A stretch of 64,000 nucleotides of DNA from an uncultured Clostridia bacterium (lineage in GTDB: Bacteria > Bacillota > Clostridia > TANB77 > CAG-508), in contig CANQXD010000003.1 in assembly GCA_947627755.1 (NCBI GenBank), positions 4,173 through 68,172 of the forward strand, in the 5' to 3' direction. The number at the start of each line of letters is the position of its first letter. The stretch's first letter is position 1. Below, one piece after another: positions 14,206-62,219 of this stretch. Made by a program: the position numbers and the translations under genes. The notes below the pieces were generated by a model. It was not told the DNA's origin. It saw only the letters and a program-made list of their open reading frames with translations, and did not search any database.

Positions 14206-15061
14206 TTATTCTTGGCAAAGTTCTTTTATTTTCTTTATATTTTTCATTACACACTCATATCCATATTGATAACAATGGTCTAACTTTTGCACGTCTAGTA
14301 AACCTACTTTATCTGTATAAACACTTAATACCATATCACTTTTTTCTAAATTTTCTTCTGCAATTTTGTTTCCCATAATGTCAATTGTTTTCATTATAAT
14401 ATCCATTATATTACTTGTTTCATCTACAGGGTCTGCATCAAATTTTACTGCTATTACTTTGTCTGCCCCTTGCTTTCTTACTTCTGTAACAGGTACATTG
14501 TCTAAGGCTCCTCCATCCATAAAAGCATGTGTTCCTATTAAACATGGATTGAATACAGCAGGAAAACTACTACTTGCTCTTACTGCTTTTCCTATGCTAA
14601 TGTTAGTTAAGTACTGAGATTTATCTTGTGATTCTTCTGGAACATTATTGGTAAATACATATTCTTTTGATTCTGCAATATCTACACTTGGTATTACAAT
14701 AGGCATTGGTATTTGTTTTATTTCTTTAATTCCTTTTTTTAATGCTAATTTATTGCATAGTATTTCTATTGGTTCTCCATCTTTTAGCCCTGTTACCTTC
14801 TTTTTATAAAAAATATATTGTTTTATTCCTTTCCATATTGGTTCAGTGTGAAAAGAAGTAATTTCTTTGGCATACCTTTTAAATAAAAGATAGATATAAT
14901 GTGGTTTATAGCCCATAGCATATAAACTTGCTATCATACTTCCGGCAACTTGTTCCTCCTATTATATCAATTTTAATCTCATTATCTTCTAATGCTTTTA
15001 GCACTCCTGCATGTGCAATTCCTCGAATACCTCCACCAGATAAAGCAATTCCTAATTTCAA
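14206..15061 (-). pseudogene. patatin-like phospholipase, disrupted by a +1 frameshift in the GxSxG nucleophile motif
   Basis: Upstream frame: (TTG)[37 protein letters not shown], then out of frame. Removing one A of caact (14947-14948) restores [17 protein letters not shown]. The span is 856 nt (3n+1). DGG catalytic Asp motif (AFMDGGALDN) is present downstream. Confidence 0.85.
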
Positions 15062-15223: not shown

Positions 15224-17083
15224 TTAGAATCCTGTTCTTGGAAGTTTTGGCTCTTCTGGTTTTTTAGAAGGATTTGTAATAGTTATTTCTTGTGTACTTT
15301 CATGCTCTATAATTTCTACTTCAAATTCTTCATTTGTTATGTCATAATCATAATGTGTTTTTACTTCTCGAATTGTATAAATTCCTTTTTCTAATTCTTT
15401 ACTAATTGCAATTCCTTCTTCATTGGTAATTAATGTTTGTACCACCTTTTTATTTTCATCTAAAATTTGAAAGATTACACCTTCAATTGGACTTCCTTGT
15501 AATCTTCCATTTATTAGGTTGTCGTCTTCACTTATTTTTATAATTTTTATTTTTCCTTTTATTTTTTCGTTTTCTAGTTTTAATGTGATTACTTCTCCAT
15601 ATTTAATTTCCACAGTAATCTCTTTTTCTTTTAATACATAATTATCGTTTGTTTTTGTTTCCTTTAGAGTGTAAGTTCCTATTTCTAAATTGTTTGCATA
15701 AGCCTCGCCTTTTTCATTGGTAATTAGTGTTTGTACTAATTTTCCTTCGCTATCAAAAAGTTTAAATTCTACATTTTTTAATGCAATTTTATTATCTTCA
15801 GCATCTACTTTAATAATTTTTAAATTTCCTTTTTTTCGCTCATTTTCGAACATAACACTTGCTAGTTTTCCCCATTGCAAGGTAACTTGTTTTTTCTCTT
15901 TTGAAAGTAGATATGGTTCTGGAACCTTAGTTTCCTCAATGGTTACAGTTTGTGGATAAATTCCATCTAAATGTGCAATTCCATTTTGATTTGTAGTAAC
16001 TTCTCCTATTTTATTTTGTTTTTCATCTATTATTTCAAAAGTGACATTTGCTAGTGGTTTCTTTGTTTCTGCATCTATTTTTTGAATTTCTAAACTACAT
16101 GTATTTGCTTTTATTTTTAATTGAATAGATGTTCTTGCTGTTTCATAACTATTTAAATATGTAACATAACTTTGTGCCTCACTATCTCCACTTTTACAAT
16201 GAAAAATAGGGTTGGTTTTTATTTGTGCATTTTTTACAATTACCGTTCCATTAATATCTTGTTTTATTTGGTTTGTTGGAATTGCTATTTTAAATGTATT
16301 TTGTGAAAAATAGTTTTGTTCTACATTATTCATATCTAATATTTTTGTTCCATTTGGAAATTTTTGCATTTCTACTTCATAAGATTTTAATTCTTTATTA
16401 GCTTGTACTTTATAATTTTGCACATAATATTCTATATTATTAATTATTTCTGTCTTTCTTCCTTGGTATTCTTGTATTCCTACATTTGGTGGCTGATAAG
16501 TATCACTTCCATTTATTCCATAATCATACAATGTTTGTGCTACTTCTAACACTTTCTTTCCTCTTCTTTGTATTTCTTCTACTGTATTTCCATCTACACT
16601 TCTATTCCCTAAAATATATTTTTGGGTTGGAGCAATAGAATCTTTTAATGAGTGAAGTGCTACCTTTGTCGCAGAGTATAAATCATCATCACATTCTAAA
16701 TTCCATTCTGTGTAATTTGAACCCATATAACCTTTATCTAATATCCTCCAAATTCTTTGGTCTTCTTCTTTTTGAATGGTTACATTGTAAGCATCATATC
16801 CAGTTCCTACTCCTTTTTTTGCTGGTTCTACACAAAATGCCGGATAGTTTTTGTTTTCGGCCTCATCATGATAATAAACATAATATACTACTTTATAACT
16901 CCATCTTTTTTCATTTTCCATATAATATTCTAGTAAAGAATCACATTCGTGATCTGCTTGTAATAGCACAGTATCCCCTTCTTTAATTTTTGCTTCACTA
17001 GGAATGATACTTGCTGTTATTTGTAGTATTTGAAATGTTAGTAATAAAATTAAAATTAATTTTTTTATTATTTTCTTTTTCAT
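15224..17083 (-). CDS. surface adhesin: signal peptide, thioester-domain-like N-domain, three CnaB/SpaA-type repeats, terminal LPRTG
   Basis: Signal peptide MKKKIIKKLILILLLTF. PAFCVEPAKKG and YSATKVALHSL resemble the Cys and TQxA motifs of thioester domains. Three repeats of the type LKIIKVDAEDNKIALKNVEFKLFD...GTYTLKETK. Ends ...EEPKLPRTGF-stop. Confidence 0.8.
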   Translation of the reverse strand: MKKKIIKKLILILLLTFQILQITASIIPSEAKIKEGDTVLLQADHECDSLLEYYMENEKRWSYKVVYYVYYHDEAENKNYPAFCVEPAKKGVGTGYDAYNVTIQKEEDQRIWRILDKGYMGSNYTEWNLECDDDLYSATKVALHSLKDSIAPTQKYILGNRSVDGNTVEEIQRRGKKVLEVAQTLYDYGINGSDTYQPPNVGIQEYQGRKTEIINNIEYYVQNYKVQANKELKSYEVEMQKFPNGTKILDMNNVEQNYFSQNTFKIAIPTNQIKQDINGTVIVKNAQIKTNPIFHCKSGDSEAQSYVTYLNSYETARTSIQLKIKANTCSLEIQKIDAETKKPLANVTFEIIDEKQNKIGEVTTNQNGIAHLDGIYPQTVTIEETKVPEPYLLSKEKKQVTLQWGKLASVMFENERKKGNLKIIKVDAEDNKIALKNVEFKLFDSEGKLVQTLITNEKGEAYANNLEIGTYTLKETKTNDNYVLKEKEITVEIKYGEVITLKLENEKIKGKIKIIKISEDDNLINGRLQGSPIEGVIFQILDENKKVVQTLITNEEGIAISKELEKGIYTIREVKTHYDYDITNEEFEVEIIEHESTQEITITNPSKKPEEPKLPRTGF

Positions 17084-21814: not shown

Positions 21815-23416
21815 CTAATTTATTGTTACTAATTTTTTTATTGAATAAATTTTCCGTTCGTCTTGATTCCAAGTATTTATTAAGGCATCTACTTCTGAAT
21901 TAGGAACTAACGCTATTCGAAGTGCTGAAATTGGTTTTGTTGTATCATAACACGTTAATTCTCCATTTTTCGCAGGTGATAACCAACCAACAGAATCTAC
22001 GTAAACTTGATAGCAAATAGAATTTTCGTTATATGATTTTAATTTTATTTGTAATGCCGAAATACCATAACGATATTGTTTTGCAATTTCTTCTGGAATT
22101 GGATTTTCATTATACATATCTCCTTTTCCTATTCCATTGACACCACCGCCACCTAGTTGAAAATAATATTTTCCATTTAAAAGTATTCGGTCTTCTTGTG
22201 TTTCATATTTCCAATCACTTCCTTGAGGATTCCAACCATTAGAATAAATTTGACCTGTAATTTCACATCTTCCTTTACCTTCTTCTCCCCAATGAGTATA
22301 AACATAAGCTCTTGCTTGTAAATAGTCTTTTTCAACATCACCAGAAATGTTAAAAGCTAAACTTTCTGTTTTGTAAGTAGCATTTTTTCTTATTGCTTCT
22401 AAACCTGCAATGTCATAATTTCCATAACCATAACTCCAACTTACTACTGAATTATGAGAAGCATAACTTAATATAATATTAGTTGCCTCTATAATATTTA
22501 TTTCTACTTGGCTACTATTTCCTGCTAAATCTTGAATGGTAGTAATATAAGATAAATTGTTTGTAAATATCTTTTTCAAGATAGTTTTATTTTCTAAAGT
22601 CCAACCATCTAATTTTCTAATTTCTTCATTTGCTATAATTTTTGCCTCTATTTTGCCTGCTTCTATTTTTTCTTGTGAGTAAATACCTTGTGGCTTTGTA
22701 TTATCGATTTGAATATTCGTATCTTTTGTTACTGATACATTTGTATTTCCTGTTTCATCTTGAATAACACCATTTTGTATACTAATGCTTAAATTTCCTT
22801 CTTCTTTGATACCAAATAATTTTAGTTTTACTTCTTGCTCTTTTGTTTCTTTTCTAATAACTTCAAATTCTTTGGTAACTGAATCGATTTCTTTATTGTT
22901 AATCAATACATGAATATCATTTTTTTCTAAAGATTTTTGTATTTTTTGATCATCTTTTACTAATAAGTTTATACTAATTTGCGTTTCTTGATTAGCATAA
23001 TTAGGATAGCTTTCATTGCTGTTATAAATGCTTAATATTTCTACCACTGGAGCAATTGTATCTATATTGTTTACTTCTATTGTTACTTTTTTGCTATTTC
23101 CTGCCTTATCTTTTATTTCTACTTCTTCTTGTGTATTTTGTTCAAATTTCTTTTTTAATGTACATCCATCTTCCTGCAAAACCCATCCATTTCCTGGATC
23201 TTGCACTTGTTCATCTGCTTGCAGAGTTACTTCTACTGGTTGAGAAGTTTTTTCTCTTGTAGAATATGTTTCCTCTACATTTGGAGGTGTTCTATCAATG
23301 TTTAAGGTGCCAGCTACTATATTTTCTTCTATTACATATTTTCCAAATGTAGGCGTTAAGAAAATACAAAATAAAATTAAAAATGTAATAGTTGCAATTA
23401 AAATACTTTTTTTCAT
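21815..23416 (-). CDS. large secreted protein with a TasA-like (SipW-cognate) signal, Ig-like repeats and ChW-like C-terminal repeats
   Basis: N-terminus ...FLTPTFGKYVIEENIVAGTLNIDRTPP (compare TasA ...AYF...AGTLD). D-x-AGN motifs (DKAGNSKKVTIEV, QDLAGNSSQVEINI). C-terminus YQVYVDSVGWLSPAKNGELTCY...ISALRIAL resembles clostridial hydrophobic-W repeats. Confidence 0.7.
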   Translation of the reverse strand: MKKSILIATITFLILFCIFLTPTFGKYVIEENIVAGTLNIDRTPPNVEETYSTREKTSQPVEVTLQADEQVQDPGNGWVLQEDGCTLKKKFEQNTQEEVEIKDKAGNSKKVTIEVNNIDTIAPVVEILSIYNSNESYPNYANQETQISINLLVKDDQKIQKSLEKNDIHVLINNKEIDSVTKEFEVIRKETKEQEVKLKLFGIKEEGNLSISIQNGVIQDETGNTNVSVTKDTNIQIDNTKPQGIYSQEKIEAGKIEAKIIANEEIRKLDGWTLENKTILKKIFTNNLSYITTIQDLAGNSSQVEINIIEATNIILSYASHNSVVSWSYGYGNYDIAGLEAIRKNATYKTESLAFNISGDVEKDYLQARAYVYTHWGEEGKGRCEITGQIYSNGWNPQGSDWKYETQEDRILLNGKYYFQLGGGGVNGIGKGDMYNENPIPEEIAKQYRYGISALQIKLKSYNENSICYQVYVDSVGWLSPAKNGELTCYDTTKPISALRIALVPNSEVDALINTWNQDERKIYSIKKLVTIN

Positions 23417-23445
23417 TATTATTTCCTCCTTATCTTTTTAATTTT

Positions 23446-24006
23446 TTATATGTTATTTGCTGTTTGGATAGAGTGAATTTTCACTTCTACATTTTCATTA
23501 ATATCTTTTCCTAAGGTGCCTTTAGTATTATCATAAGTAATTTCTAAACGATAAGAATGAGTTTGTTTTTGGTCTTTTCCTAATTTAATTGTTGCTGTTT
23601 TATTTTGGGTTAAGGGAATTTGTTTGTTGCCTTGATAAAGAGCAAATTGTATAGATTCATCTGTATTAGAAATAATTTCAATATAATATTCCATATCCAC
23701 TTGATTTAATTCATCTTCTTTATAATTTCGAACTTCAAAAACATAAGATGCTTTAGGGGCGAATGCAGTTAGTAGCAAACTTTGTTCTTTTTTTATTTCT
23801 AAAACTGGCTTTGCAATACTTGCAAAGCCTTGTCCTGTTACTTTACTTTGATATTTTGCAAAGCTTATCCCAATTAGAATTCCAAGTAAAAGAAGAAGTA
23901 AAAGAAATATGAGAAGAAAAATTTTACTTGGTTTCTTTTCTTTCTTTTCAAACAACTTTTTTTCACTTTGAGTTAGGAATGAACGTTGCTTTAATTTTGT
24001 TTTCAT
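23446..24006 (-). CDS. small secreted protein with a SipW-cognate-like signal (paralog of 24416-25003)
   Basis: Start set at the ATG at 24006 (MKTKLKQRSF), with RBS AAAGGAGAAAAT and an ATGA overlap with the sipW stop. The h-region ends GISFAKYQSKVTGQGFASIAKP, parallel to GGSYSKYLTQVDGKGIIEVAKW in the paralog. Confidence 0.7.
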   Translation of the reverse strand: MKTKLKQRSFLTQSEKKLFEKKEKKPSKIFLLIFLLLLLLLGILIGISFAKYQSKVTGQGFASIAKPVLEIKKEQSLLLTAFAPKASYVFEVRNYKEDELNQVDMEYYIEIISNTDESIQFALYQGNKQIPLTQNKTATIKLGKDQKQTHSYRLEITYDNTKGTLGKDINENVEVKIHSIQTANNI

Positions 24007-24413
24007 ATTTTCTCCTTTCCTTTTATGATAATAAAAAAAATACATATTCCAATCACATAATATCGATAATGATAAATGATTCCTAATAATTGAGAATGGA
24101 AAATAACTTTTCCTTGAATTTGTTCTTTTGTTACTATTTTTTCATCTTCTGTATTATTAGCATCTCCTTTGGTAATATAACCTTTCTCTGTTGTTTGAAC
24201 AATACGATGTGTTATAAAATAGGAATTTCCTACATTATAAGTAATAATATCTTTTGTTTTATAGTTTTTTTGTTTTACTAATATTATAATTTCGCCTACT
24301 TGTAACTCTGGTACCATACTTCCTGATTGTATTTTATATAGTTTAATATGGCTTTGGTATACTAATAAAATTAAAATACATATTATTAAAAATAAAATTA
24401 TACTTTTTTTCAT
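24003..24413 (-). CDS. sipW: signal peptidase I, ER/archaeal (SipW) type
   Basis: SGSMVPELQVGE (catalytic Ser box), ITHRIV (His box) and ITKGDANNTED, in a short 136-aa protein with one N-terminal TM and a C-terminal hydrophobic segment, as in S26B SipW. Confidence 0.85.
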   Translation of the reverse strand: MKKSIILFLIICILILLVYQSHIKLYKIQSGSMVPELQVGEIIILVKQKNYKTKDIITYNVGNSYFITHRIVQTTEKGYITKGDANNTEDEKIVTKEQIQGKVIFHSQLLGIIYHYRYYVIGICIFFIIIKGKEKI

Positions 24414-24415
24414 TT

Positions 24416-25003
24416 TTATACTGACTGTGGTGTTTCTTGAGTTCCTGTTATAACAATGTTAAAGGAATATTGCTCTAATAATGTTCCATCATTTGTGTCT
24501 TGTGCATCTTCTTGTGTTCTATTGCCTTGCGTTTCATAAGGCCAATTCCATAAAATTGTCATTGTTTTTGTTTTTTCACTTGCGTTTGCTGCTATAGTTC
24601 CTTCCAAATATTGTTCTAAATCTTTTACACTATTTACGGTGTGCCCATCATACGTAAATTGCAAATTTTGTGGCTTACTGGTTTCATTTTGGAATTTAAC
24701 ATCATAGTTAATTCCTACTTCTGAACCACTTGCGTCTATTTCAATATTGAAAGAACCATTAGTTCCCGGTGCAATTGTATTTTGTTTCAATGTTTCTTTC
24801 TTATAAGTGCTTGCCAAGTTTAATGGTGTAATACTAGCAGTTTGTCCATTTACTAAAAATGCCCATTTTGCTACTTCAATAATGCCTTTTCCATCAACCT
24901 GCGTTAAATATTTAGAGTAACTTCCTCCTTGAAAAAAAAGTAATAGTAAAAATAATAAGATTAGTAATACTAAAAAAATAATTTTTCTTTTTGGCTTTTT
25001 CAT
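24416..25003 (-). CDS. small secreted protein with a SipW-cognate-like signal (TasA/CPF_0494-like class)
   Basis: MKKPKRKIIFLVLLILLFLLLLFFQGGSYSKYLTQVDGKGIIEVAKWAF, then beta-rich APGTNGSFNIEIDASGSEVGINYDVKF. No C-terminal sorting signal. Confidence 0.7.
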   Translation of the reverse strand: MKKPKRKIIFLVLLILLFLLLLFFQGGSYSKYLTQVDGKGIIEVAKWAFLVNGQTASITPLNLASTYKKETLKQNTIAPGTNGSFNIEIDASGSEVGINYDVKFQNETSKPQNLQFTYDGHTVNSVKDLEQYLEGTIAANASEKTKTMTILWNWPYETQGNRTQEDAQDTNDGTLLEQYSFNIVITGTQETPQSV

Positions 25004-25021
25004 ATATTTTTTATTTCCTTT

Positions 25022-25603
25022 CTAAATTTTTATCTCTTGTGCCTGAACACAAAGTCTGTATTCAGGCACATTTTCTACACAAGTAATTAAGGTTAATATA
25101 TTTTCTTTTGTTTCTTTCAAATAGGAAAAATCGGTTTCTTTGATGTACCCTTTCCAAGTTACATGATAAGTTCTTTTCCCTTGCTCTGTTTGATAGATAA
25201 TACTATCTCCTATTTCGAGCCTTTTTAATTCTTGGAAAAAATGAGATGGGTATCCTCTATTATGAGCAGCTAGGGCTACATTTCCATTCCATTTATTAGT
25301 GGATTCAAAATGACCTACTGCTTGTTTTAAAATTTCTTGACTAGTTCCTTCTAAAATAGGGGCCTCTAAATTGATTTTTGAGATAAAAATTTTCCATGAT
25401 GAATTGCTTATTTCATTTACTTTTATATCTTCTTTTTCATCTTTTTCTAGGCTTGATTGACTTGTTTTAAGAACAAAACTAGAATGAATTTCCTTTTTTG
25501 ATTTCTCTTCTAATTGTTTTAGAATAAATAAGATGGATACCAATAGGATAAATGAGATGATAAGTGAAACAATAATTCCCTTTCTTTTGCTATAGTTTGA
25601 CAT
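25022..25603 (-). CDS. sortase-family transpeptidase
   Basis: N-terminal TM anchor, His region GNVALAAHNRG, catalytic Cys motif TLITC and a downstream Arg (YRLCVQ). First gene of the operon. Confidence 0.85.
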   Translation of the reverse strand: MSNYSKRKGIIVSLIISFILLVSILFILKQLEEKSKKEIHSSFVLKTSQSSLEKDEKEDIKVNEISNSSWKIFISKINLEAPILEGTSQEILKQAVGHFESTNKWNGNVALAAHNRGYPSHFFQELKRLEIGDSIIYQTEQGKRTYHVTWKGYIKETDFSYLKETKENILTLITCVENVPEYRLCVQAQEIKI

Positions 25604-25923: not shown

Positions 25924-26361
25924 ATGAGTGAAACATCTACTATCAACAAGGCACGGGCTTCTAACTCTTTAGAACCTAATTGGATGAAGAAAAAAGTATG
26001 TATTGCTAATGCCAAAATTAACGGTTTAGCAAAATCTCCTTATTTCTTTGAGCCGAGAGTTTACTACGTTTGGGACATTACTTTTTCTAAAACTTCTACA
26101 TTACTTTTCTATAATCTTCCGTTTATTTATATGGGAAATACCTACGAAGAAGCAGAGGTATTTTGTAATCAGGTTAAGCAGAATTTTGCTGACGCCCATA
26201 TTCAGAACGGCGATATGGTAAAGGTAATGTACCAGAAAAACGGATCTGTAAAAGCAATTGGTTCTATGAAAACTGACATCTGGATTGATGTAGATGACAA
26301 GTTTTCAAAAAAGACTTTGGAGGAACTCAATGTTATTGTATTAGAAAAATTTATTTATTAA
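25924..26361 (+). CDS. orphan hypothetical protein (145 aa), compositionally atypical
   Basis: Long ORF with RBS AAGGAGG and its own terminator. It uses G/C-ending codons (cgg, gcc, ccg, ggc) that are rare in neighbouring genes. No family recognised. Confidence 0.65.
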   Translation: MSETSTINKARASNSLEPNWMKKKVCIANAKINGLAKSPYFFEPRVYYVWDITFSKTSTLLFYNLPFIYMGNTYEEAEVFCNQVKQNFADAHIQNGDMVKVMYQKNGSVKAIGSMKTDIWIDVDDKFSKKTLEELNVIVLEKFIY

Positions 26362-26502: not shown

Positions 26503-28035
26503 TTACTTATCCAATTCAAAATAGAATTCTACTCCATTTTCATTATTGATAACACCAAAATCGTTACCATATTGGTTCATAATGGCTTTTACTAAAGCAA
26601 GTCCAATACCTGTTCCACCATCTTCTCTATTTCTAGCACTATCTACTTTATAAAAACGTTTCCAAATTCTTTCTAAGTCTTCTTCTTTAATATTTTCTCC
26701 AGTATTAAAAATGCTGACTCTTACTTTATTGTTATTCTCTTGTATTTGCACTTTTATTTGTTTTTTACCATCTTTTTCTTCTACATGCTTAATTGCATTT
26801 GTTAAATAATTTGTAATAACTTGCTCAATGTAAAATTCATCTGCATTTACAGTAATTATCTTGCTATCGTCAAATTCTACTTCAATTTGTTTTTCTGTTA
26901 ATAACATATTGCACTTACGAATAACCTCTTTCATTAATTCCACAATATCCATATTCCTATTGTTGAATTCGCCTTTTCCATACTCTAATTTCATTAGTTC
27001 TAACAATTGTTTTACTAATTTATCCATTTTTTCTGCTTCATCTAAAATAACTTCTGCATAAAATTTTCTAGATTCTTCATCATTATTTACGTTTTCTACT
27101 AATCCTTCTGCATAGCCTTGTATTAAAGCAATTGGCGTTTTTAGTTCATGAGATACATCAGAAATAAATTGTTTTCTCATTTCGTCAATTTTTGATTTTT
27201 CTTCAATATCTTTTTCTAACTCTCCATTTGTTTCTCTTAGTTGTTTTATTGTGCTTTCTAGTTTATCTGACATAGTATTAATACTTTTTCCTAAATGGTT
27301 GATTTCGTCATCTGCGTCTTTTGTTCTATATTTTTTACTAAAATCTAATTTTGACATACTTTGTGCTATTTCATTTAATTCTAGAATAGGATCTGTAAAT
27401 TTTTTGGCTATGAAGGATGCCAAAATACCTGCAATGATAATAGAAATTCCACCTATTAGAATAAGCAAACGATTTGCTATTTGCACACTTTCTTGAATAG
27501 AGGCAACTTGAATTCTTATGTATAGACTACTACCATTATCCAAACTAGCCGATAAGAAGATATAATTCATACTATTTTTTTCATCTAAAATTCTACGAAT
27601 CATTACTTTTTCATCTTGGTATATTATACGTTGTTTATTTGTTACTTTACTATCTATAATAAAATTTTGCTCTCCATTATTTAGCATCATTTCATTGATT
27701 TTGTTAATAGTTGAAGCTAAATTTCTATCTGAACTAAAAATTAAAATGCTTTGATTATTTTTTATTAAAATATCAAAGTTATTTTTCATAGCAATATGGT
27801 TTAGTTCTTCTTCTATGTTGATATTCGCATCTTCATTTTGCTCGATTGTGTTGTATAAGTTATTTATTTTTTCATATTCTAATTTTACATTTTTTACTTT
27901 CGAATATAAATAAAAACTTTCTAAAATAACATTGTTAATAATAATTAGAAATATTACAATTATAGATACGACAACACATAGACTAAGAAACAATTTAACA
28001 CGTACTGATTTTAGTTTTTCCTTGATATAGTTCAT
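26503..28035 (-). CDS. sensor histidine kinase (two TM segments, HAMP, HisKA, HATPase)
   Basis: H-box FISDVSHELKTPIALIQGYAEGL, N-box NYLTNAIKH and G-boxes GTGIGLALVKAIM. N-terminal TM and a second TM (LILIGGISIIIAGILASFIA) precede the HAMP domain. Confidence 0.9.
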   Translation of the reverse strand: MNYIKEKLKSVRVKLFLSLCVVVSIIVIFLIIINNVILESFYLYSKVKNVKLEYEKINNLYNTIEQNEDANINIEEELNHIAMKNNFDILIKNNQSILIFSSDRNLASTINKINEMMLNNGEQNFIIDSKVTNKQRIIYQDEKVMIRRILDEKNSMNYIFLSASLDNGSSLYIRIQVASIQESVQIANRLLILIGGISIIIAGILASFIAKKFTDPILELNEIAQSMSKLDFSKKYRTKDADDEINHLGKSINTMSDKLESTIKQLRETNGELEKDIEEKSKIDEMRKQFISDVSHELKTPIALIQGYAEGLVENVNNDEESRKFYAEVILDEAEKMDKLVKQLLELMKLEYGKGEFNNRNMDIVELMKEVIRKCNMLLTEKQIEVEFDDSKIITVNADEFYIEQVITNYLTNAIKHVEEKDGKKQIKVQIQENNNKVRVSIFNTGENIKEEDLERIWKRFYKVDSARNREDGGTGIGLALVKAIMNQYGNDFGVINNENGVEFYFELDK

Positions 28036-28121
28036 GAATGTTTCCTTTCTTTGTGATTTAGTGTAGTGATATTATATTTTTATGTTTTTTATGTTTTTGA
28101 TTTATCTGTTCTTGTCTAACA

Positions 28122-28799
28122 TTATTTTACTTCAAATTTATATCCAATGCCTCGAATAGTCTCAATATATCTTCCCTTTTTTCCTAGTTTATGTCGAATT
28201 TTTTTGATGTGACTATCAATAGTTCTAGAGTCTCCATAGTAATCATAGTTCCATACATTATTTAAAATTTTATCTCTTGATAGGGCAATGCCATGATTTT
28301 CTACAAGATATATTAGTAGTTCATATTCTCTTAAACTTAATTCTATTTCTTTGCCATCAATTTTTACTGTTCTTCCTTCTTCATCTATAACAATTCCACC
28401 ATATTCTTTTTTATTGCTTTCTTTTGGCTTTGTACGATTTAAAATTGCTTCTACTCTAGCTACTAATATTTTAGGACTAAAAGGTTTTGAAATATATTCA
28501 TCTACTCCTAATTCAAATCCAAATAGTTCATCTTGTTCTTCTCCTCTTGCTGTTAGCATAATAATTGGTACATCTGACTTTTGACGAATTTGACGAAGTA
28601 CTGACCATCCATCTAATTTTGGCATCATTACATCTAATAAAATTAGTTTTATTTTGTTTTGGTTTTCTTCAAATACGGTTAAAGCTTCTTCTCCATTGGC
28701 TGCTTCTAATACTTTATATTGCTTTTGCATTAAAAAGTCTTTTACTAATTTTCTCATTCTAGATTCATCATCTACTACTAAAATAGTAATATCATTCAT
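28122..28799 (-). CDS. OmpR-family response regulator
   Basis: Receiver domain (ILVVDDE...LILLDVMMPKLDGW...MLTARG) and a winged-helix output domain (LSLREYELLIYLVENHGIALSRDKILNNVW...TIRGIGYKF). Confidence 0.92.
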   Translation of the reverse strand: MNDITILVVDDESRMRKLVKDFLMQKQYKVLEAANGEEALTVFEENQNKIKLILLDVMMPKLDGWSVLRQIRQKSDVPIIMLTARGEEQDELFGFELGVDEYISKPFSPKILVARVEAILNRTKPKESNKKEYGGIVIDEEGRTVKIDGKEIELSLREYELLIYLVENHGIALSRDKILNNVWNYDYYGDSRTIDSHIKKIRHKLGKKGRYIETIRGIGYKFEVK

Positions 28800-55627: not shown

Positions 55628-57256
55628 TTAAAAAATAACTAATTTTTTGTTTAGCTCTTGTAAAGTTGTTATTCCTGCTAATACTTTGTTTAATCCATCA
55701 ACAACAAGTGGTCTATAATTTCCTTCTAATGCCTTATTTCTAATTTCTATACTAGAAGCATTATCTACTATTAATTGCTTAATAGTATCATCAATTACTA
55801 ATATCTCATAGATAGCAATTCTATCATAGTAGCCAGTATGGTGGCATCTTTCACAACCTATTGTTTCATAAGTTGTTTTATCTGTAAAATCTAATGTAGT
55901 ATGATATTGTTCTGCAATATGATTCATTATATCTTTTTCTTCTTCATTGAATTCTCTTTTTTTACTACAATATGGACATACTTTTCTTACTAGACGTTGC
56001 GAAATTGAAGTTGCAAGTGTACTTGCTATGTCGTAGTTTGAAATTCCCATTTTTCTTAATCTTGTAATAACTTCTACACTGTTAATTGTATGTATAGTGG
56101 ATAATACGTAATGTCCAGTTTGTCCAGATTGCATTGCAATTTCTGCCGTTTCTTTATCACGAATTTCTCCTACTAGAATAATATCTGGATCTTGTCTTAA
56201 AACTGTTCTTAAAGAATCAGAGAAAGAAGTCTTTGTATCAATTTCTACTTGATTTAAGCCTGGAATACGAATTTCAACTGGGTCTTCAATTGTGGTAATA
56301 TTAATACTTGGCTTGTTTAACATATCTACAACGCTATATAATGTTGTTGTTTTTCCTTCTCCTGTAGGTGCCGCAATAATAGTAATACTATTTTTCTTAT
56401 CAAAGCTATCTTTTAGTAATTTTTCATCTTTTGGGAAACCTAAATCAAAAATTTTCTTGATTCCAGCATTCTTTTTTAATAATCTTAATACAAATTTTTC
56501 TCCATATACATTTTTTTGTGAAGATACACGAATGTTATAGTCTGGATACTCTAAAATTCTACCATCTTGTGATTCTTGTTTTTCTTGGTGCATATTTGAA
56601 ATAGCTTTTAACCTTCCTATAATTTGTGGTTGTTTTTCTTGTTCTATTTCTACTGCTGTAATAAGTTCTCCGTCTATACGATAGCGAATTCTTAATTTAT
56701 CTTCCATTGGTTCAAAGTGAATATCACTGGCTCTTTTTTCCATAGCCGTTTTAATTATACTATCTACTAATCCTGTAATATCTCGATTTGTATCAATGTT
56801 TTCTGAAACCACTCCTTCTAAAGAGTTTAATATTTCATCTATATTACTTTCAAATGTAATATATTTATCCATAACAAGCCCTTTATTTAATAATAAAAGT
56901 CTTATAGTATCTACTGTTCTTGGCTTAGTAGTATCAGCAAAACATACCTTTACTTTTCCAGCCTCTATATCAAATGGAATTGCTTTATTCTTTTTTGCAA
57001 TATCTAAAGATATATAATCTGAGACCTCAATACGAATATCATTTTCAGTTAATAATATTGTTTTTTCTCCTAAAATATCTCCTAATGCTGATATTAAGGC
57101 ATTATCATTACATAAATGCAAAATATGTAAAATATCTCCTAATTTTTTTTCAGGATGTTCTCTTTGGTATTCTAAGGCTGATTGAATATCCTCTTCACTA
57201 ATAATTCTTCTTTTTGCAAGTTCTATTCCAATTGGTTGTGTTTGTTTTAGTGCCAT
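55628..57256 (-). CDS. pilB: type IV pilus assembly ATPase (PilB/GspE family)
   Basis: Walker A APTGEGKTTT, PDIILVGEIRD, GHYVLSTIHT and a tetracysteine motif (CPYC...CERC). Confidence 0.92.
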   Translation of the reverse strand: MALKQTQPIGIELAKRRIISEEDIQSALEYQREHPEKKLGDILHILHLCNDNALISALGDILGEKTILLTENDIRIEVSDYISLDIAKKNKAIPFDIEAGKVKVCFADTTKPRTVDTIRLLLLNKGLVMDKYITFESNIDEILNSLEGVVSENIDTNRDITGLVDSIIKTAMEKRASDIHFEPMEDKLRIRYRIDGELITAVEIEQEKQPQIIGRLKAISNMHQEKQESQDGRILEYPDYNIRVSSQKNVYGEKFVLRLLKKNAGIKKIFDLGFPKDEKLLKDSFDKKNSITIIAAPTGEGKTTTLYSVVDMLNKPSINITTIEDPVEIRIPGLNQVEIDTKTSFSDSLRTVLRQDPDIILVGEIRDKETAEIAMQSGQTGHYVLSTIHTINSVEVITRLRKMGISNYDIASTLATSISQRLVRKVCPYCSKKREFNEEEKDIMNHIAEQYHTTLDFTDKTTYETIGCERCHHTGYYDRIAIYEILVIDDTIKQLIVDNASSIEIRNKALEGNYRPLVVDGLNKVLAGITTLQELNKKLVIF

Positions 57257-57342
57257 ATCATCTTCTCCCTTCTTTTGTACTCTATCTCTATTATACTATA
57301 CTTTTTATTATTTCTATAGCATTTTTAACAAATTACATAAAA

Positions 57343-57786
57343 TTACCAATATCGTAGTACATATTCATTTTTAACTTCAAAAAGTTTTGAGCTTTTAATT
57401 GCCATCTGTACTTGTATTAAATTTTTGGTAATATTATTTTGTTTTTGCTCTGTTTTTGTAAATTTACAATAAGCAATGTTATTGCATATCTTTACCTTGT
57501 TACGATAAATACTATTATCTGGAGCTTCATAATAAGTATATATTGTACCATCTTCAAAAATAATCTGATGATTTGTTACTTCATAAGTATTGTTGTTGTT
57601 TTTTACATCTTCAATAAAATACATATTGAATTTATTAAATTCTGATATATATTTTCCACTCTCAGTAATATATTTTGTATTACTAAAAAACATATCACTT
57701 ATCACTGCTAGCATTGAAATAGCAAATGTTAGCAATATCATATATATAATTAAAGAGGTTAATGTGATTCCTTTTTCTTGTTTCAC
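57343..57786 (-). CDS. minor pilin-like protein (non-canonical prepilin)
   Basis: MKQEKG|ITLTSLIIYMILLTFAISMLAVI: short basic leader ending in Gly, then a ~22-aa hydrophobic helix. Ser at +5. Confidence 0.7.
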   Translation of the reverse strand: MKQEKGITLTSLIIYMILLTFAISMLAVISDMFFSNTKYITESGKYISEFNKFNMYFIEDVKNNNNTYEVTNHQIIFEDGTIYTYYEAPDNSIYRNKVKICNNIAYCKFTKTEQKQNNITKNLIQVQMAIKSSKLFEVKNEYVLRYW

Positions 57787-57801
57787 TAAAAGTCTCCTTT
57801 T

Positions 57802-58212
57802 CTACGCTTCTTTTATTTTTAATTTTCGTATCGTATAGTTCTTAGTTTGTCCTAAAAATTCGTAATCAATGGTTATAGTAAGAATTTTTATAATATCTTG
57901 CTTACTACTATCGTTTTGATTATATTTTTCTACTTTTATATTTGCATTCATACTTTCTGGTAATTCATACATAGCACTAATATTTTCATTTAAAGTTTCT
58001 GTTACTTCTTCATATTGCATTTTGTCTGTACTTTCTGCTATTTTTACAGCATAATGAACTGCCATTGCGTTCATTCTAATTTCTGCTGTATAGGATGCAA
58101 TTTGATAATATAAGGTACCTATTGTTCCTACAAACAAGCTTAAAATCAACATAGCAATAACAACATCTGCAATTGATATTCCTTTATTTTCTTTCCACTT
58201 TATTAATTTCAT
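57802..58212 (-). CDS. minor pilin-like protein (non-canonical prepilin, Asp at +5)
   Basis: Start set at the ATG at 58212 (MKLIKWKENKG|ISIADVVIAMLILSLFVGTIG) after AGGTGG. Abuts the pilD stop. Confidence 0.7.
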   Translation of the reverse strand: MKLIKWKENKGISIADVVIAMLILSLFVGTIGTLYYQIASYTAEIRMNAMAVHYAVKIAESTDKMQYEEVTETLNENISAMYELPESMNANIKVEKYNQNDSSKQDIIKILTITIDYEFLGQTKNYTIRKLKIKEA

Positions 58213-58213
58213 T

Positions 58214-59029
58214 TTACCACCTACAAGCAAACCAATTGATTCCAATTATTGTGATAATATTAAAAATTGTTAGATAAAAACCAATGGGTAAATTTTCAAA
58301 ATAAGACATTGCTTTATAATTTTTTCCTCTACTATTTTGCATTATTTTTCTTATTATATTCTCTATACAAAATGTCACTAAACTTAAGAATACTGTTATT
58401 ATATAACCTATTGGATATGAAAAAACTATCATAATAATACTTAATTGCAAAATTTCAATTACATAAGAGCCTTGTATTTTTTTCTTTAAATACTTATTAT
58501 CAATTATTATTAATATAATAAGCAATAATAAGGATATAACATATCTATATATATTAGCTTTTTCTACTATATATAGATAAATCATATACCCTGCTAAAAT
58601 AATAGTTTCATATAAAATTACGCATTTTTGAATAGTTTTTCTTTCTTTATCAATTCCCGCTATTATAATTAAGCCAGCAAAATATAATAGCCCTACTAAC
58701 AAATATACTAATTTACTAACTTCTAATTTTTCAAATGATAAATTAAGTGACATAGCAAATAAAAGAAATATTGTACCTGATAATATTTCTAAAAGTAAAT
58801 AACGAATTCTAATTTTTTCTTTGCAATAATGACATTTTCCCTTTAACGCTAAATAGCTTAAAATAGGAATCATATCCCAAAATCCAAGTTTATGATTGCA
58901 ATTTGGACAATAAGAACGTTTATGGGTAATGTCTTGATGTAAAGGAAGTCTATATACTGCCAAAGTAAAAAAGCTTCCAAATAGAGTTCCAATGCAAAAA
59001 ATTAAAAAATAAAAAATAAATTGTTCCAT
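58214..59029 (-). CDS. pilD: prepilin peptidase (A24 family, divergent)
   Basis: N-terminal Zn-binding region CPNCNHKL...CHYCKEKI, a first Asp region (IIAGIDKERKTI) and polytopic topology. The usual GxGD(V/F)KL box is not obvious (closest is IIDNKYL). Confidence 0.8.
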   Translation of the reverse strand: MEQFIFYFLIFCIGTLFGSFFTLAVYRLPLHQDITHKRSYCPNCNHKLGFWDMIPILSYLALKGKCHYCKEKIRIRYLLLEILSGTIFLLFAMSLNLSFEKLEVSKLVYLLVGLLYFAGLIIIAGIDKERKTIQKCVILYETIILAGYMIYLYIVEKANIYRYVISLLLLIILIIIDNKYLKKKIQGSYVIEILQLSIIMIVFSYPIGYIITVFLSLVTFCIENIIRKIMQNSRGKNYKAMSYFENLPIGFYLTIFNIITIIGINWFACRW

Positions 59030-59046
59030 TTTCTTTCCATTTTACT

Positions 59047-59090
59047 AAAAAATATGAGGTTACCTAAATACAAAATTGGTAACCTCATAT
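59047..59090 (-). terminator. strong hairpin/terminator immediately after the major pilin gene
   Basis: Perfect 13-bp stem atatgaggttacc / ggtaacctcatat (59052-59064 / 59078-59090). On the minus strand it is followed by TTTTT. Confidence 0.8.
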
Positions 59091-59145
59091 TTAGTTTTTT
59101 AGCTAATAAATTAAATAATTTTGCTAATTAGATAATTATGCTTTA

Positions 59146-59364
59146 TTATTCCCAGCCTTTGTCGTCTATATATTTTTCAACGTTAGTAAAATCACTTTGC
59201 TCTTGATTAGCTGCTGCTGCATAATTTTCACGACCTTGTTTTGCCTTATTGAATAATCCATTTTGTCCTAATACCATAGAAATAGATATTCCAGCTAAGA
59301 TAATAAGTACAACAATAGTAATTACTAATGCAACAAGTGTAATACCTTTTTGTCCTTTTAACAT
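59146..59364 (-). CDS. major pilin candidate, 72 aa (65 aa mature), non-canonical prepilin
   Basis: MLKGQKG|ITLVALVITIVVLIILAGISISMVLGQNGLFNKAKQ... Strong RBS AAGGAGG and its own downstream hairpin. No room for a globular head domain. Confidence 0.8.
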   Translation of the reverse strand: MLKGQKGITLVALVITIVVLIILAGISISMVLGQNGLFNKAKQGRENYAAAANQEQSDFTNVEKYIDDKGWE

Positions 59365-59431
59365 AAAAAATTCCTCCTTATATTTATTTTTTTGTATATA
59401 TTTATTTTTATAAATATAACCTAAATATTAA

Positions 59432-59866
59432 TTATTTTAGTCCTGTTTTTGGACTACTTACTGTATTTCCCGTACTTCCCGTGCTTCCTGTATTTTGATT
59501 GTTTCCTGCTTGTCCATTTGATGAATTATTATCTGGCGTGTCAGTTCCTACTATCGTAGTACCTGCATCACTTTCTACTGTAGTTGCAAATGGATTTTCT
59601 TTGCTAGGGTCGTAAGTTCTATCTTTTTGATAAATATTTAAATCTGCTCCTTCTATTACATATACTCTATTTTGTAATTCTATTTCGTTATCAATTGTTT
59701 CTTCTTTTAATGCATTTTGAACACTTTCTGGTGTAGTATATGCAATTTTATTTGGAACTACTTTACTAATTGGGTTATCATCATAAAATAATACACTTAA
59801 TAATAAGATGATAACAACACATAGTAATAAAATGATAATCATTTCTTTTAATATGGTTTTAATCAT
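59432..59866 (-). CDS. bitopic pilus-cluster protein of unknown role
   Basis: N-terminal TM (MIIILLLCVVIILLLSVLFY), then a small domain and an Asn/Gly/Ser/Thr-rich tail. Lies between the pilO-like and pilin genes. Confidence 0.55.
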   Translation of the reverse strand: MIKTILKEMIIILLLCVVIILLLSVLFYDDNPISKVVPNKIAYTTPESVQNALKEETIDNEIELQNRVYVIEGADLNIYQKDRTYDPSKENPFATTVESDAGTTIVGTDTPDNNSSNGQAGNNQNTGSTGSTGNTVSSPKTGLK

Positions 59867-59883
59867 TTTTTTACTCCTTTACT

Positions 59884-60573
59884 TTAGTCTTCATTTGTAT
59901 TAGTATTTTCCTGCGTATCACTAGATTCTTGTGAATCATTAGTTTCTTGCGTATCTGTTGTGCTTGTTGCATTTACTGATTGTGTTGAAGTGTTACCTTG
60001 TACTGTTACATTTTTAACTGTAAATGTTCCTTGTAATATTTCACCTTGATAAGGTAATAGTTTGAAGTTTTGTATTCTAAAGTTTAAATCTGTATCATTT
60101 TCAATAGCATAAATGAAGTTTGTAATTGCTATATATGAACCATTTACTGTAAATCTTATATCATTTACACCATTAGTACCTGTACTACTTGAAACGATTT
60201 CAAATGTTAGTAAAACTCCTTGCTTTCTAGCATGTGTTCCTAATGTTGTCCATAAAAATTCAATAGTATAACTTTTTTGTTCCATTGCTGCTAAAATTTC
60301 TGCATCTGTACTTACATTCGTATATTGTAAATATTCTTCTTCTGCTTCTTTTAAATTTTTTTCTGCATTTGTTAGCTCTGATCTTTTTTTAGGATAGTCA
60401 ACATCAATCATAGCATTGGCTTCTTCAATTTTGGTATTTAATTCTTGTGCTTTTTGTTCTATTTGCTCTATACTTAAAATTTGTATACTACCAAATTGCA
60501 TTCCATTTCTTAAGGCTACATAGCCTAGAGCAAGAAATAAAACAATGATAATACTTAATAATATCTTTCTCAT
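59884..60573 (-). CDS. PilO-like pilus alignment protein
   Basis: N-terminal TM, a coiled coil (QKAQELNTKIEEANAMI...NLKEAEEEY) and a C-terminal beta-rich domain. ATGA overlap with the pilMN stop. Assignment rests on architecture and position. Confidence 0.5.
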   Translation of the reverse strand: MRKILLSIIIVLFLALGYVALRNGMQFGSIQILSIEQIEQKAQELNTKIEEANAMIDVDYPKKRSELTNAEKNLKEAEEEYLQYTNVSTDAEILAAMEQKSYTIEFLWTTLGTHARKQGVLLTFEIVSSSTGTNGVNDIRFTVNGSYIAITNFIYAIENDTDLNFRIQNFKLLPYQGEILQGTFTVKNVTVQGNTSTQSVNATSTTDTQETNDSQESSDTQENTNTNED

Positions 60574-62219
60574 GGCAAGTCTCCTTCTATTACAACTTTT
60601 ACAATACCATTTTGTTTTACACCAGAAGTAGAAACTATTGTACTAGGGCTTAAAATTCCATCAACAATTAACTTGCTCTTGAAAAATCCTAGTAAATCAT
60701 ATTCCTTAGCTTGTGCTTGGATAACAATATGGGAATTTGAAGTATTTTCTATTGACGTTAAAGTAACTCCTTTTGGAATAACATTCATAATTCTTGTTAA
60801 TAACAATGGAATCACATTTTTTGTTCTTAGCTTTTCTTGTGCTTCATCACTATAATTTTTAAGATTTTCTGTCATTGTTTCATAATTAGTAGCTTTACTA
60901 TTTAATGCTTGCACATCTTTATCTGCTAAACTTATTTGTTCTCTTGTATCTTCTTTTAAACGTTCAACTTCTGCTATTTTACTATCTGTTTGAACTTTTA
61001 AGAAAGTTACCATAGCAAAATAGATAATTAAGAATGCTACTATTCCTGAAGTTAATCTTAACATCCATTTTTCTGTATTGTCCCATTTTGCTTTTAAGTC
61101 GAACGATAAATTTAAAGAAGAAAAGATGTTTTTCTTTTTGCCTTTTGAATTATTAGCGTTATTTTTACTGTTTCCTTCTAATTTTAACCAACTTGGCATT
61201 TGATCCACTAATGTTGGTTTTTTAAAGTTTATGGTCTTAATTCCATAACCTAAACCTTGCATAGCAAGAGCTATAGCAGAGTTTACTTCAATATAATCTT
61301 TCATATTGATTTTTATATTGTCTGGTACAAAGTATGGTTTTAAGATTTCGCATTTAATATTTGGAAAATACTCTTGAAAGTATAAATCTACATTGCTAAT
61401 TATACTTCCAGTTCCTGTAATATAAATTTTATTTATATGGTCTATTTCTAAGTTTTCTACTAATGTTTTTGTTTTTTGCACAATTTGATATAATGTAGGC
61501 ATTATATCTTCTAAATATAAATTTTCATCTTCTTGTCCAAGTTCTTTTCCTTCCATAGTGTAAATAGTAGTATTTTTACAGATTTCATAAGCTTTTGCAT
61601 AAGAATTTTCTTTTGAATTAATATTGTCTAAAATGACGTCCATTCCTTCTTCTAATTTATCTACTTGATACACTCTTTCTTCTACCATAGTAGTAATACT
61701 TGTTTTTTCTTCAATATTAACAATAATAGAATTTTCCTTTGATTTAATATCTACTAAATTAGGAATTACCATAGCAAGTGGTGACATACAAGAGATAGAA
61801 TTTCCTTCAAATTCTTGCATTTTTCTATTAATTTCTACTTTATTTACAGATATATAAATTGCTTTTATTTTTTCGTTATTTTTCATATCTGGTACTAAAG
61901 CATAACGTGTTTCTAACGCATTTCTGTTGTAACCTTTATCAAAGCAATATGAATCAAACTCTGTTTCTATTGCTTTTTTTAAGTCATTTTTATTAAGTAG
62001 ATTAAAAAAGTAGAAATATTGATAAGTTTCCTCTGATAAATTAATACTAATTGGTATTTTGTAGCTAAAAGTTTCAGAAATGATTTGATTAATTGCTTCA
62101 CCAATTTTATCATAAAATTTTACACCAAAAGATTCTACTTTTAGTAAGTCACGTTCTTTAGTTACTTTTGCATATTTAATTAAATTGTTTTCAATATATA
62201 AACCTAAACAACTTGGCAT
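60570..62219 (-). CDS. pilMN: fused PilM-PilN pilus alignment protein
   Basis: N-terminal actin-like PilM-type domain (about 330 aa), then TM (LTSGIVAFLIIYFAMVTFL), a coiled coil and a PilN-like C-domain. A fused pilMN is known in clostridial T4P loci. Confidence 0.7.
   Translation of the reverse strand: MPSCLGLYIENNLIKYAKVTKERDLLKVESFGVKFYDKIGEAINQIISETFSYKIPISINLSEETYQYFYFFNLLNKNDLKKAIETEFDSYCFDKGYNRNALETRYALVPDMKNNEKIKAIYISVNKVEINRKMQEFEGNSISCMSPLAMVIPNLVDIKSKENSIIVNIEEKTSITTMVEERVYQVDKLEEGMDVILDNINSKENSYAKAYEICKNTTIYTMEGKELGQEDENLYLEDIMPTLYQIVQKTKTLVENLEIDHINKIYITGTGSIISNVDLYFQEYFPNIKCEILKPYFVPDNIKINMKDYIEVNSAIALAMQGLGYGIKTINFKKPTLVDQMPSWLKLEGNSKNNANNSKGKKKNIFSSLNLSFDLKAKWDNTEKWMLRLTSGIVAFLIIYFAMVTFLKVQTDSKIAEVERLKEDTREQISLADKDVQALNSKATNYETMTENLKNYSDEAQEKLRTKNVIPLLLTRIMNVIPKGVTLTSIENTSNSHIVIQAQAKEYDLLGFFKSKLIVDGILSPSTIVSTSGVKQNGIVKVVIEGDLP

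Follow-up and report, generated by a model that had tools for sequence, protein, structure and literature searches.

In the FCT pili of Streptococcus pyogenes, a class C sortase polymerizes the pilins, all of which have an LPXTG-type sorting signal and a membrane anchor; SipA is S26A-like but lacks catalytic activity. The tapA-sipW-tasA locus of Bacillus subtilis encodes a dedicated S26B signal peptidase and TasA, which forms donor-strand fibers, and contains neither a sortase nor a TED adhesin gene (PDB 8AUR; PMC9674648; PMC10151520). In Clostridium perfringens, the sortase gene srtB adjoins sipW-bsaA-bsaB-bsaC-bsaRSD, BsaA and BsaB have no LPXTG, and the BsaA polymers of an srtB mutant are normal (PMC7395162); the BsaA fibers are described as formed by donor-strand exchange with an isopeptide lock (preprint PMC11580942). 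According to the same preprint, operons of the BsaA/TasA family frequently contain several paralogs together with genes for signal peptidases, sortases, LPxTG proteins, and SpaA-domain proteins (PMC11580942). For the bacterial loci of the TasA-superfamily protein AbpX, a 2026 preprint describes TIGR02228 peptidases along with histidine kinases, sortases, wall anchors of the SLH or LPXTG type, and minor and tip subunits (10.64898/2026.01.04.697558). Here we analyze a cluster of five genes, that is, a sortase, a signal peptidase, and three secreted proteins that we designate pA, pB, and pC, in a 64-kb stretch of DNA (27% G+C; the window, that is, the whole stretch that was analyzed) from an uncultured gut Clostridia bacterium.

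The original prediction for this cluster, made from the DNA sequence alone, was a candidate surface-fiber assembly operon with its own signal peptidase, of which the sortase is an integral part although it has no obvious substrate in cis, and for which no described equivalent was known. The cluster does look like a surface or fiber module with a dedicated signal peptidase; however, equivalents have been described (bsa, BsaA/TasA, and AbpX, as cited above), and because this architecture is already in the literature the locus is not a new class of machine. The explanation that we favor, as probable if by no means certain, is a TasA-superfamily-like fiber module that depends on a SipW-type peptidase and is located inside a second module composed of the sortase and a TED-domain adhesin.

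The signal peptidase and the secreted proteins

The five open reading frames (ORFs) are all on the minus strand and are tightly packed in the order sortase (25022..25603), pA (24416..25003), signal peptidase (24003..24413), pB (23446..24006), and pC (21815..23416); the successive gaps are 18 nt, 2 nt, −4 nt (an ATGA overlap), and 29 nt, in agreement with the coordinates, gaps, and overlap first reported for them. A terminator scan detects no terminator-like site on the minus strand within the cluster; a promoter scan is uninformative in DNA this rich in AT (33 sites vs 29.8 expected). The start of pB is the ATG behind a GGAGA ribosome-binding site, and the identical 186-residue protein is on record in public collections. 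The 64-kb window contains no second sortase, second peptidase, or further pA-like gene.

The signal peptidase (136 residues) matches the model for archaeal/ER-type signal peptidase I (TIGR02228) with 82.3 bits (cut-off, 51.85), contains intact Ser (SGSM), His (THRIV), and Asp (KGDAN) boxes, and has membrane segments at both its N- and C-termini. With the equivalog model for Bacillus SipW (NF046067), its score is 53.6 bits, that is, below the cut-off of 190. Judged by sequence, the protein is an S26B peptidase of the same type as SipW and is not a SipW ortholog.

The putative substrates of the peptidase are pA (195 residues), pB (186 residues), and pC (533 residues). Their N-terminal signals end in GGSYS-KY (pA), ISFA-KY (pB), and TPTFG-KY (pC), so they share the pattern [SFT][YF][SAG]-KY; in pC the KY-type signal continues into a conserved N-terminal strand (TPTFG|KYVIEENIVAGTLNI). 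The common signal had been noted from the window alone and is now found to be conserved across the three families: Lys26 and Tyr27 are invariant in the pC family, the KY pair is conserved at ≥90% in the pB family, and Tyr32 is invariant in the pA family. None of the three proteins matches a Pfam or NCBIfam family above its cut-off, and none matches the SipW-cognate models of the NCBIfam TIGR0408x/0409x series at E ≤ 0.1. They also have neither an LPXTG-like C-terminus, as had been claimed, nor a C-terminal membrane segment. The C-termini of pA (TGTQ.xP) and pB (IKIHSIQKA, of which HSIQKA is the core) are conserved, each with an invariant Gln. We considered these as cryptic sorting motifs; however, they are the same whether or not a sortase is encoded nearby, so we rejected them as sortase signals.

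The pA family is large: a word-indexed search retrieves 109 clusters, and a full hidden Markov model (HMM) search retrieves at least 4854 representative clusters at E ≤ 1e-3; the pB family has 92 clusters. The proposal that pA and pB are paralogs finds no support from BLASTP, in which the signal region alone matches (E 0.62); in a profile–profile comparison with hhalign it stands (97% probability, E 4e-11, 143 columns, with part of the score contributed by the signal peptide). Thus, pA and pB appear to be remote paralogs that are related at the profile level only. In the alignment of 66 diverse members of the pA superfamily, no Asn, Glu, or Lys is located in an invariant or ≥90% conserved column, so the Asn-Glu-Lys triad that forms the intermolecular isopeptide of BsaA-type "exchange and lock" fibers was not found there; in pB, Asn94, Glu110, and Lys176 are invariant.

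The AlphaFold2 model of the pA monomer (mean predicted local distance difference test score, pLDDT, 72.5) is a β-sandwich in which residues 26-52 are unstructured and have the lowest confidence. This segment contains several of the most conserved positions in the family (Tyr32, Gly38, Gly40, Ala45, and Trp47), as would be the case for a strand that becomes ordered only upon polymerization. The best global fold match in the PDB (Foldseek) is TasA (5of1/5of2; TM score 0.36-0.39, probability 0.89-0.92).

As a separate observation, a pA-type domain with its signal also forms the N-terminal part of adhesins as long as 3136 residues, which contain Flg_new, Glug, or LamG (Laminin_G) domains (P0439, 3136 residues; P0455, 2694 residues; P0364, P0392, P0402, and P0448); these large proteins are consistent with tip-adhesin-like subunits of the same system.

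The third protein, pC, is modeled with higher confidence (pLDDT 90.5) as three Ig-like domains followed by a C-terminal β-rich domain, with residues 24-31 disordered; using the full-length model, Foldseek retrieves Ig-domain arrays only (e.g., SbsC). The D/E-x-(A/T)GN repeats that had been assigned to Ig-like domains are present, as are the motifs quoted for the two enzymes, and the Ig-like assignment holds. The second assignment, to wall-binding ChW repeats, is weak in the window's own pC (PF07538; E 0.094, 13 bits vs a cut-off of 22) and is backed by its relatives, of which 6/40 match ChW (best E 5.5e-6) and 4/40 match Big_3_2; the C-terminal domain is thus described here as ChW-like, an assignment that for the window copy depends on the family members.

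To place these genes in context we collected pA loci from one genome per species (80 loci, all from metagenome-assembled genomes of uncultured gut Clostridia, with up to 10 kb of flanking DNA). Profile searches of the ORFs identify a conserved core, pA-pB-pA′-pC, in which pC is sometimes divergent; pB follows pA in nearly all related loci. An S26B peptidase is encoded within the flank in 15 of the 80 loci and a sortase in 8; when the sample is restricted to the 45 loci flanked on each side by 3 kb or more, the counts are 9 and 5, respectively.

In the mechanism that we propose for the fiber module, the S26B peptidase would cleave the signals of pA, pB, and pC immediately before Lys-Tyr. Outside the membrane, pA, the candidate major subunit, would polymerize, most likely by donor-strand exchange, that is, with the N-terminal segment of one subunit inserting into the β-sandwich of the next. 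The pB protein would be a minor subunit. Using the same N-terminal strand, pC may join the fiber as a terminal subunit or anchor, and its ChW-like domain may tie the fiber non-covalently to the wall, as TapA does for TasA.

Several results count against the assignment to a TasA-like fiber. The match to the TasA fold is weak (TM <0.4, E 0.01-0.03), and generic β-sandwiches (FlhE, CUB, and the C-terminal domain of an enterotoxin) score like TasA against pA. The resemblance does not extend to sequence. In the Pfam/NCBIfam scan of the 66 diverse pA relatives, none matches Peptidase_M73 at E ≤ 0.1, and TasA is not recovered by the PDB profile search. Using a TasA reference first verified as identical to PDB 8AUR, hhalign gives probabilities of 5.7% and 1.8% for two pA profiles (A1 and A4), where only the signal c-regions align (GGGTWAAF in TasA with GGxSYSKY in pA), and 0.1% for the pB profile (A2), where nothing meaningful aligns. 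Thus, we rejected pA and pB as sequence members of the TasA/camelysin family; for pA, TasA is still the best global fold match, though a weak one.

These negative results, together with the lack of a peptidase in cis in most related clusters (65/80), speak for an alternative in which pA, pB, and pC are not fiber subunits but monomeric secreted or wall-associated Ig-like proteins, for example, adhesins or matrix binders, that share a signal peptidase. We consider this explanation unlikely, although it is the most serious of the competing ones. It does not account for the presence of two or three paralogous small subunits and a large multi-domain protein with the same N-terminal strand, an arrangement reported for TasA, AbpX, and Tafi loci, or for the disorder of the most conserved pA segment in the monomer model, or for the pA domain at the N-terminus of very large adhesins.

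The sortase and its probable substrate

The sortase is a small (193 residues), membrane-anchored protein that matches Pfam Sortase (PF04203; 86.6 bits, cut-off 26.6) and TIGR01076 (71.2 bits, cut-off 39.35). The comparison with sortase subclass models that had been suggested for it does not place it: it stays below the cut-off of every NCBIfam class model, with the scores 70 vs 140 for SrtD-LPxTATN, 69.2 vs 160 for class C, 65.5 vs 160 for class E, and 55.8 vs 165 for class D, so by these models it appears to be unclassified. Its relatives in the PDB are weak (class A, 2e-11; C. perfringens SrtD, 4D70, 2e-10). The TLITC and AAHNRG motifs are present, and in an alignment of 11 relatives the catalytic His114, Cys175 (in TLITC), and Arg183 are invariant. 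A second Cys, Cys185, is located two residues past the catalytic Arg (R-x-C-x-Q) and is also invariant in all 11 aligned members.

The sortase was said to lack an obvious substrate in cis. However, a gene 4.7 kb downstream of the five-gene cluster on the same strand (15224..17083) encodes a 619-residue adhesin with a thioester (TED) domain (27.1 bits, cut-off 22) and three stretches of SpaA (170 bits, cut-off 23.1); it ends in KLPRTGF, so a cis substrate for the sortase exists, and we regard this adhesin as its probable cognate substrate. The sorting signal is unusual: the pentapeptide is canonical, but the TAA stop codon follows one residue past the Gly, and the membrane segment and charged tail of a canonical signal are absent. 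The DNA 3′ of the stop is AT-rich and non-coding. We rejected a frameshifted hydrophobic tail (every reading frame downstream is closed by stops, and numerous species have the same ending) and an alternative genetic code (the stop is TAA, and the same 619-residue product is in public collections). The tail-less ending is also found in five other loci (L006, L007, L075, L076, and L086), with the variants LPRTGF, LPKTGF, LPITGM, LPVTGM, and LPKTGK among these adhesins. Among the complete TED homologs adjacent to a sortase in loci L087-L166, 49/53 end in LPxTG plus exactly one residue (Met in 23, Phe in 18, Tyr in 7, and Arg in 1), without a hydrophobic tail. We found no description of tail-less LPXTG signals in the literature that we searched, which is not proof of absence.

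The pairing of sortase and adhesin is usual in this family. In a second sample of 80 metagenome loci, anchored on the window's sortase family, the TED/SpaA gene is immediately downstream of the sortase gene, often overlapping it, in 63; pA or pB is near the sortase in only eight. From the pA side, a TED/SpaA gene is present in 4/8 sortase-positive and 0/72 sortase-negative loci (Fisher p 4.4e-5). The conserved backbone of the sortase loci, a chromosomal island in which the two modules of the window adjoin, is metG, a response regulator, a histidine kinase, and the sortase, with a WG-repeat gene, (rpsF-ssb-rpsR), TED, and patatin further along. In the window, the two-component system is encoded at 26503..28799 on the minus strand, upstream of the sortase (histidine kinase, 26503-28035; response regulator, 28122-28799). 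Its synteny with the sortase holds in loci with and without a pA cluster, so it does not track pA: the order response regulator-histidine kinase-sortase is kept in L003, L006, L007, L010, L087, L102, L118, L135, and L139, and this backbone occurs without a pA cluster in L102, L118, L135, L139, and L144. The position of the pA cluster varies; it is located between the sortase and TED genes in the window's clade, upstream of the sortase-TED pair in L075, L076, and L154, and downstream in L142 and L157, and it is absent from L088, L102, L118, L135, L139, and L144.

The original prediction had named in advance two outcomes that would tell against it, a sortase that is not syntenic with the small proteins in related genomes and a sorting motif elsewhere that explains the sortase, and these are the outcomes that we find: the sortase is mostly unlinked from the small proteins, and the LPxTG adhesin explains it. 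With 72/80 pA loci lacking a sortase within the flank of up to 10 kb and 65/80 lacking a peptidase in cis, the proposal that the sortase is integral to a fiber operon is not supported. In the window, the fiber cluster, together with a CNNM gene, is located between the sortase and its substrate, so the sortase looks like the first gene of the fiber operon. In our favored explanation, the sortase is probably co-transcribed with the fiber genes and would not be needed for fiber assembly; it would cut after the Thr of LPRTG|F in the TED/SpaA adhesin, and the adhesin would be transferred to an amine acceptor, most simply a peptidoglycan precursor.

This separation of fiber from sortase has its own difficulties, and the following observations weigh against it. 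The two modules occur together in ~10% of the pA-anchored and of the sortase-anchored loci, with five or more different arrangements, and their co-occurrence exceeds the chance expectation. In the window's clade, the cluster appears to be progressively reduced to srt-pA-peptidase-pB, srt-pA-peptidase, and srt-pA (L019, L036, and L065), always with the CNNM gene next; in the latter two loci the sortase (srt) stays beside pA despite the loss of pB and pC. A distant version (38-41% identity) is encoded by a tight operon on an element that bears a type IV secretion system (T4SS; L001, L002, and L086, e.g., L086 2466-18866), with the order pA, S26B peptidase, a Flg_new protein with an RY-type signal, pB, pA′, sortase, a 287-residue protein, and a TED protein ending in LPKTGK. 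Finally, wall anchoring as described in textbooks relies on a membrane anchor in the sorting signal, which the adhesin lacks.

These observations point to a coupled system as an alternative: the sortase would ligate the LPRT- end of the TED adhesin to an amine of the fiber proteins, for example, a Lys side chain or the N-terminal Lys that the SipW-like peptidase would expose, and the product would be a non-covalent, TasA-like fiber that is covalently decorated with a thioester adhesin. An anchor-less adhesin would then make sense, being not meant for lipid II; the 49/53 tail-less homologs fit this proposal, as does the Lys, invariant or nearly so, that is located directly past the predicted cleavage site in pA, pB, and pC. 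The repeated adjacency of the modules in varied orders (srt-pA..TED, srt-TED-pA-pB, pA-pB-pA′-pC-srt-TED, and pA-srt-TED), the tight T4SS-borne operon, the retention of the sortase with pA in the reduced loci, and the anchor-less signal are the reasons that we keep the coupled system as a minority reading. However, we judge it improbable. The KY signal and the C-termini of pA and pB are unchanged in the 72/80 loci without a nearby sortase, so nothing in the fiber proteins tracks the sortase; 55/63 sortase-TED pairs have no pA or pB in the flank; and the adjacency counts are not corrected for shared ancestry. Equally doubtful is the wider proposal of an undescribed sortase logic, in which a small, unclassified sortase is paired one-to-one with thioester adhesins ending in LPxTG plus one residue and ligates them to a SipW-processed, TasA-like donor-strand fiber, not to lipid II, with conjugative elements also carrying the whole system.

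A single hybrid machine made up of the five genes, with the sortase using a non-LPXTG signal to polymerize or anchor pA, pB, or pC, is very unlikely. In its favor, only 18 nt and no terminator separate the sortase stop codon from the start of pA, about nine related loci keep the srt-pA order, and the conserved C-termini with their invariant Gln could be read as such a signal. Against it, those C-termini are the same in clusters without a sortase, 72/80 species have no sortase in cis, this sortase family is usually paired with a TED adhesin whose LPxTG pentapeptide is canonical, and the srtB deletion in C. perfringens leaves the BsaA polymers unchanged (PMC7395162).

Neighboring genes and related elements

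The system of the L086 type is located directly downstream of conjugation genes (PrgI, TrbL, TraG-like, and T4SS pilin), and its pA homolog is indexed in 115 blocks of the collection and on many contigs; possibly, a conjugative element here carries the genes for an adhesive structure.

Between the histidine kinase and the sortase, the window contains a divergent ORF for 145 residues (25924-26361, plus strand) that matches no family and is without homologs in the syntenic relatives; perhaps it is spurious, or else restricted to this lineage. Next to the adhesin gene, a 1-nt frameshift (~14930-15060, minus strand, joining ORF 14206-14937) interrupts the gene of a patatin-like phospholipase exactly at the active-site motif GGTS|AGS, which marks either a pseudogene or an assembly error.

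A type IV pilus cluster (55628-62219, minus strand) encodes a PilB-like ATPase, pilin-like proteins, a prepilin peptidase, and PilM/N/O-like proteins. One gene in this cluster (59432-59866) encodes a 144-residue protein with an N-terminal membrane segment that ends in SSPKTGLK, a short-tailed, sortase-like motif. In C. perfringens, type IV pilus genes are reported to aid the export of Bsa proteins (PMC11580942).

Significance and comparison with known systems

If the fiber reading is true, pA represents a very large, unannotated branch of SipW-dependent surface fibers in gut Clostridia, and its family of at least 4854 clusters gives a handle on the matrix or adhesive fibers of uncultured commensals. 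The tail-less LPxTG-X ending is the most unusual feature of the locus whichever model holds; it challenges the textbook rule that sortase substrates are held in the membrane by a hydrophobic tail, and the sortase and its LPxTG-X adhesin are possibly an engineerable sortase-substrate pair.

The FCT pili of S. pyogenes (Cpa tip adhesin, backbone pilin, SrtC, and SipA/LepA) have in common with the window a TED adhesin, a sortase, a signal-peptidase-family protein, and small Ig-like subunits. In contrast to FCT pili, the small proteins of the window are devoid of sorting signals, its peptidase belongs to S26B and is intact, and the sortase scores below the class C model (69 bits vs 160). On sequence grounds, then, pA, pB, and pC do not qualify as subunits of a sortase-assembled pilus of the SpaA/FCT type.

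The tapA-sipW-tasA locus of B. subtilis shares the dedicated S26B peptidase, a similarly shaped signal c-region (GGGTWA|AF in TasA, GGSYS|KY in pA), and an accessory protein with a similar N-terminal strand (TapA and pC, respectively); the β-sandwich subunit with an N-terminal segment that is free in the monomer is also common to both, as predicted for pA from its model. The differences are the sortase and the TED adhesin, which are absent from the B. subtilis locus, the Ig and ChW-like domains of pC, and the distance between the subunits themselves (Peptidase_M73 0/66, hhalign negative, TM about 0.36-0.39 only).

The AbpX loci, as described, have the same architecture, with a TIGR02228 peptidase, sortases, histidine kinases, and minor subunits plus anchor. 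However, the peptidase of the AbpX loci reportedly spans the membrane with ten helices, whereas that of the window has 136 residues and two membrane segments; the AbpX LPXTG anchor is predicted to enter the fiber by strand complementation, whereas the LPXTG protein of the window has no KY-type N-terminus, and the window's candidate anchor is the ChW-like protein pC.

The bsa locus of C. perfringens shares the SipW-type peptidase, a pair of small secreted paralogs that lack LPXTG, a third and larger secreted protein, and a two-component system and a sortase gene directly beside the operon. In the window, the sortase gene is co-directional with pA and 18 nt upstream of it, whereas srtB is divergent; the third protein is the Ig/ChW-like pC instead of a von Willebrand A protein; no N-E-K triad is conserved across the pA superfamily, whereas the bsa fibers use an isopeptide triad; and the LPXTG protein is a TED/SpaA adhesin with a tail-less signal that is not BsaB-like. 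Thus, the architecture of the operon, a sortase beside a SipW/TasA-like cluster, is of a known kind that has already been noted in the recent literature; what sets the window apart are the families of pA, pB, and pC, unannotated and without detectable sequence homology to TasA, the ChW-type candidate anchor, and a sortase partner with a tail-less signal.

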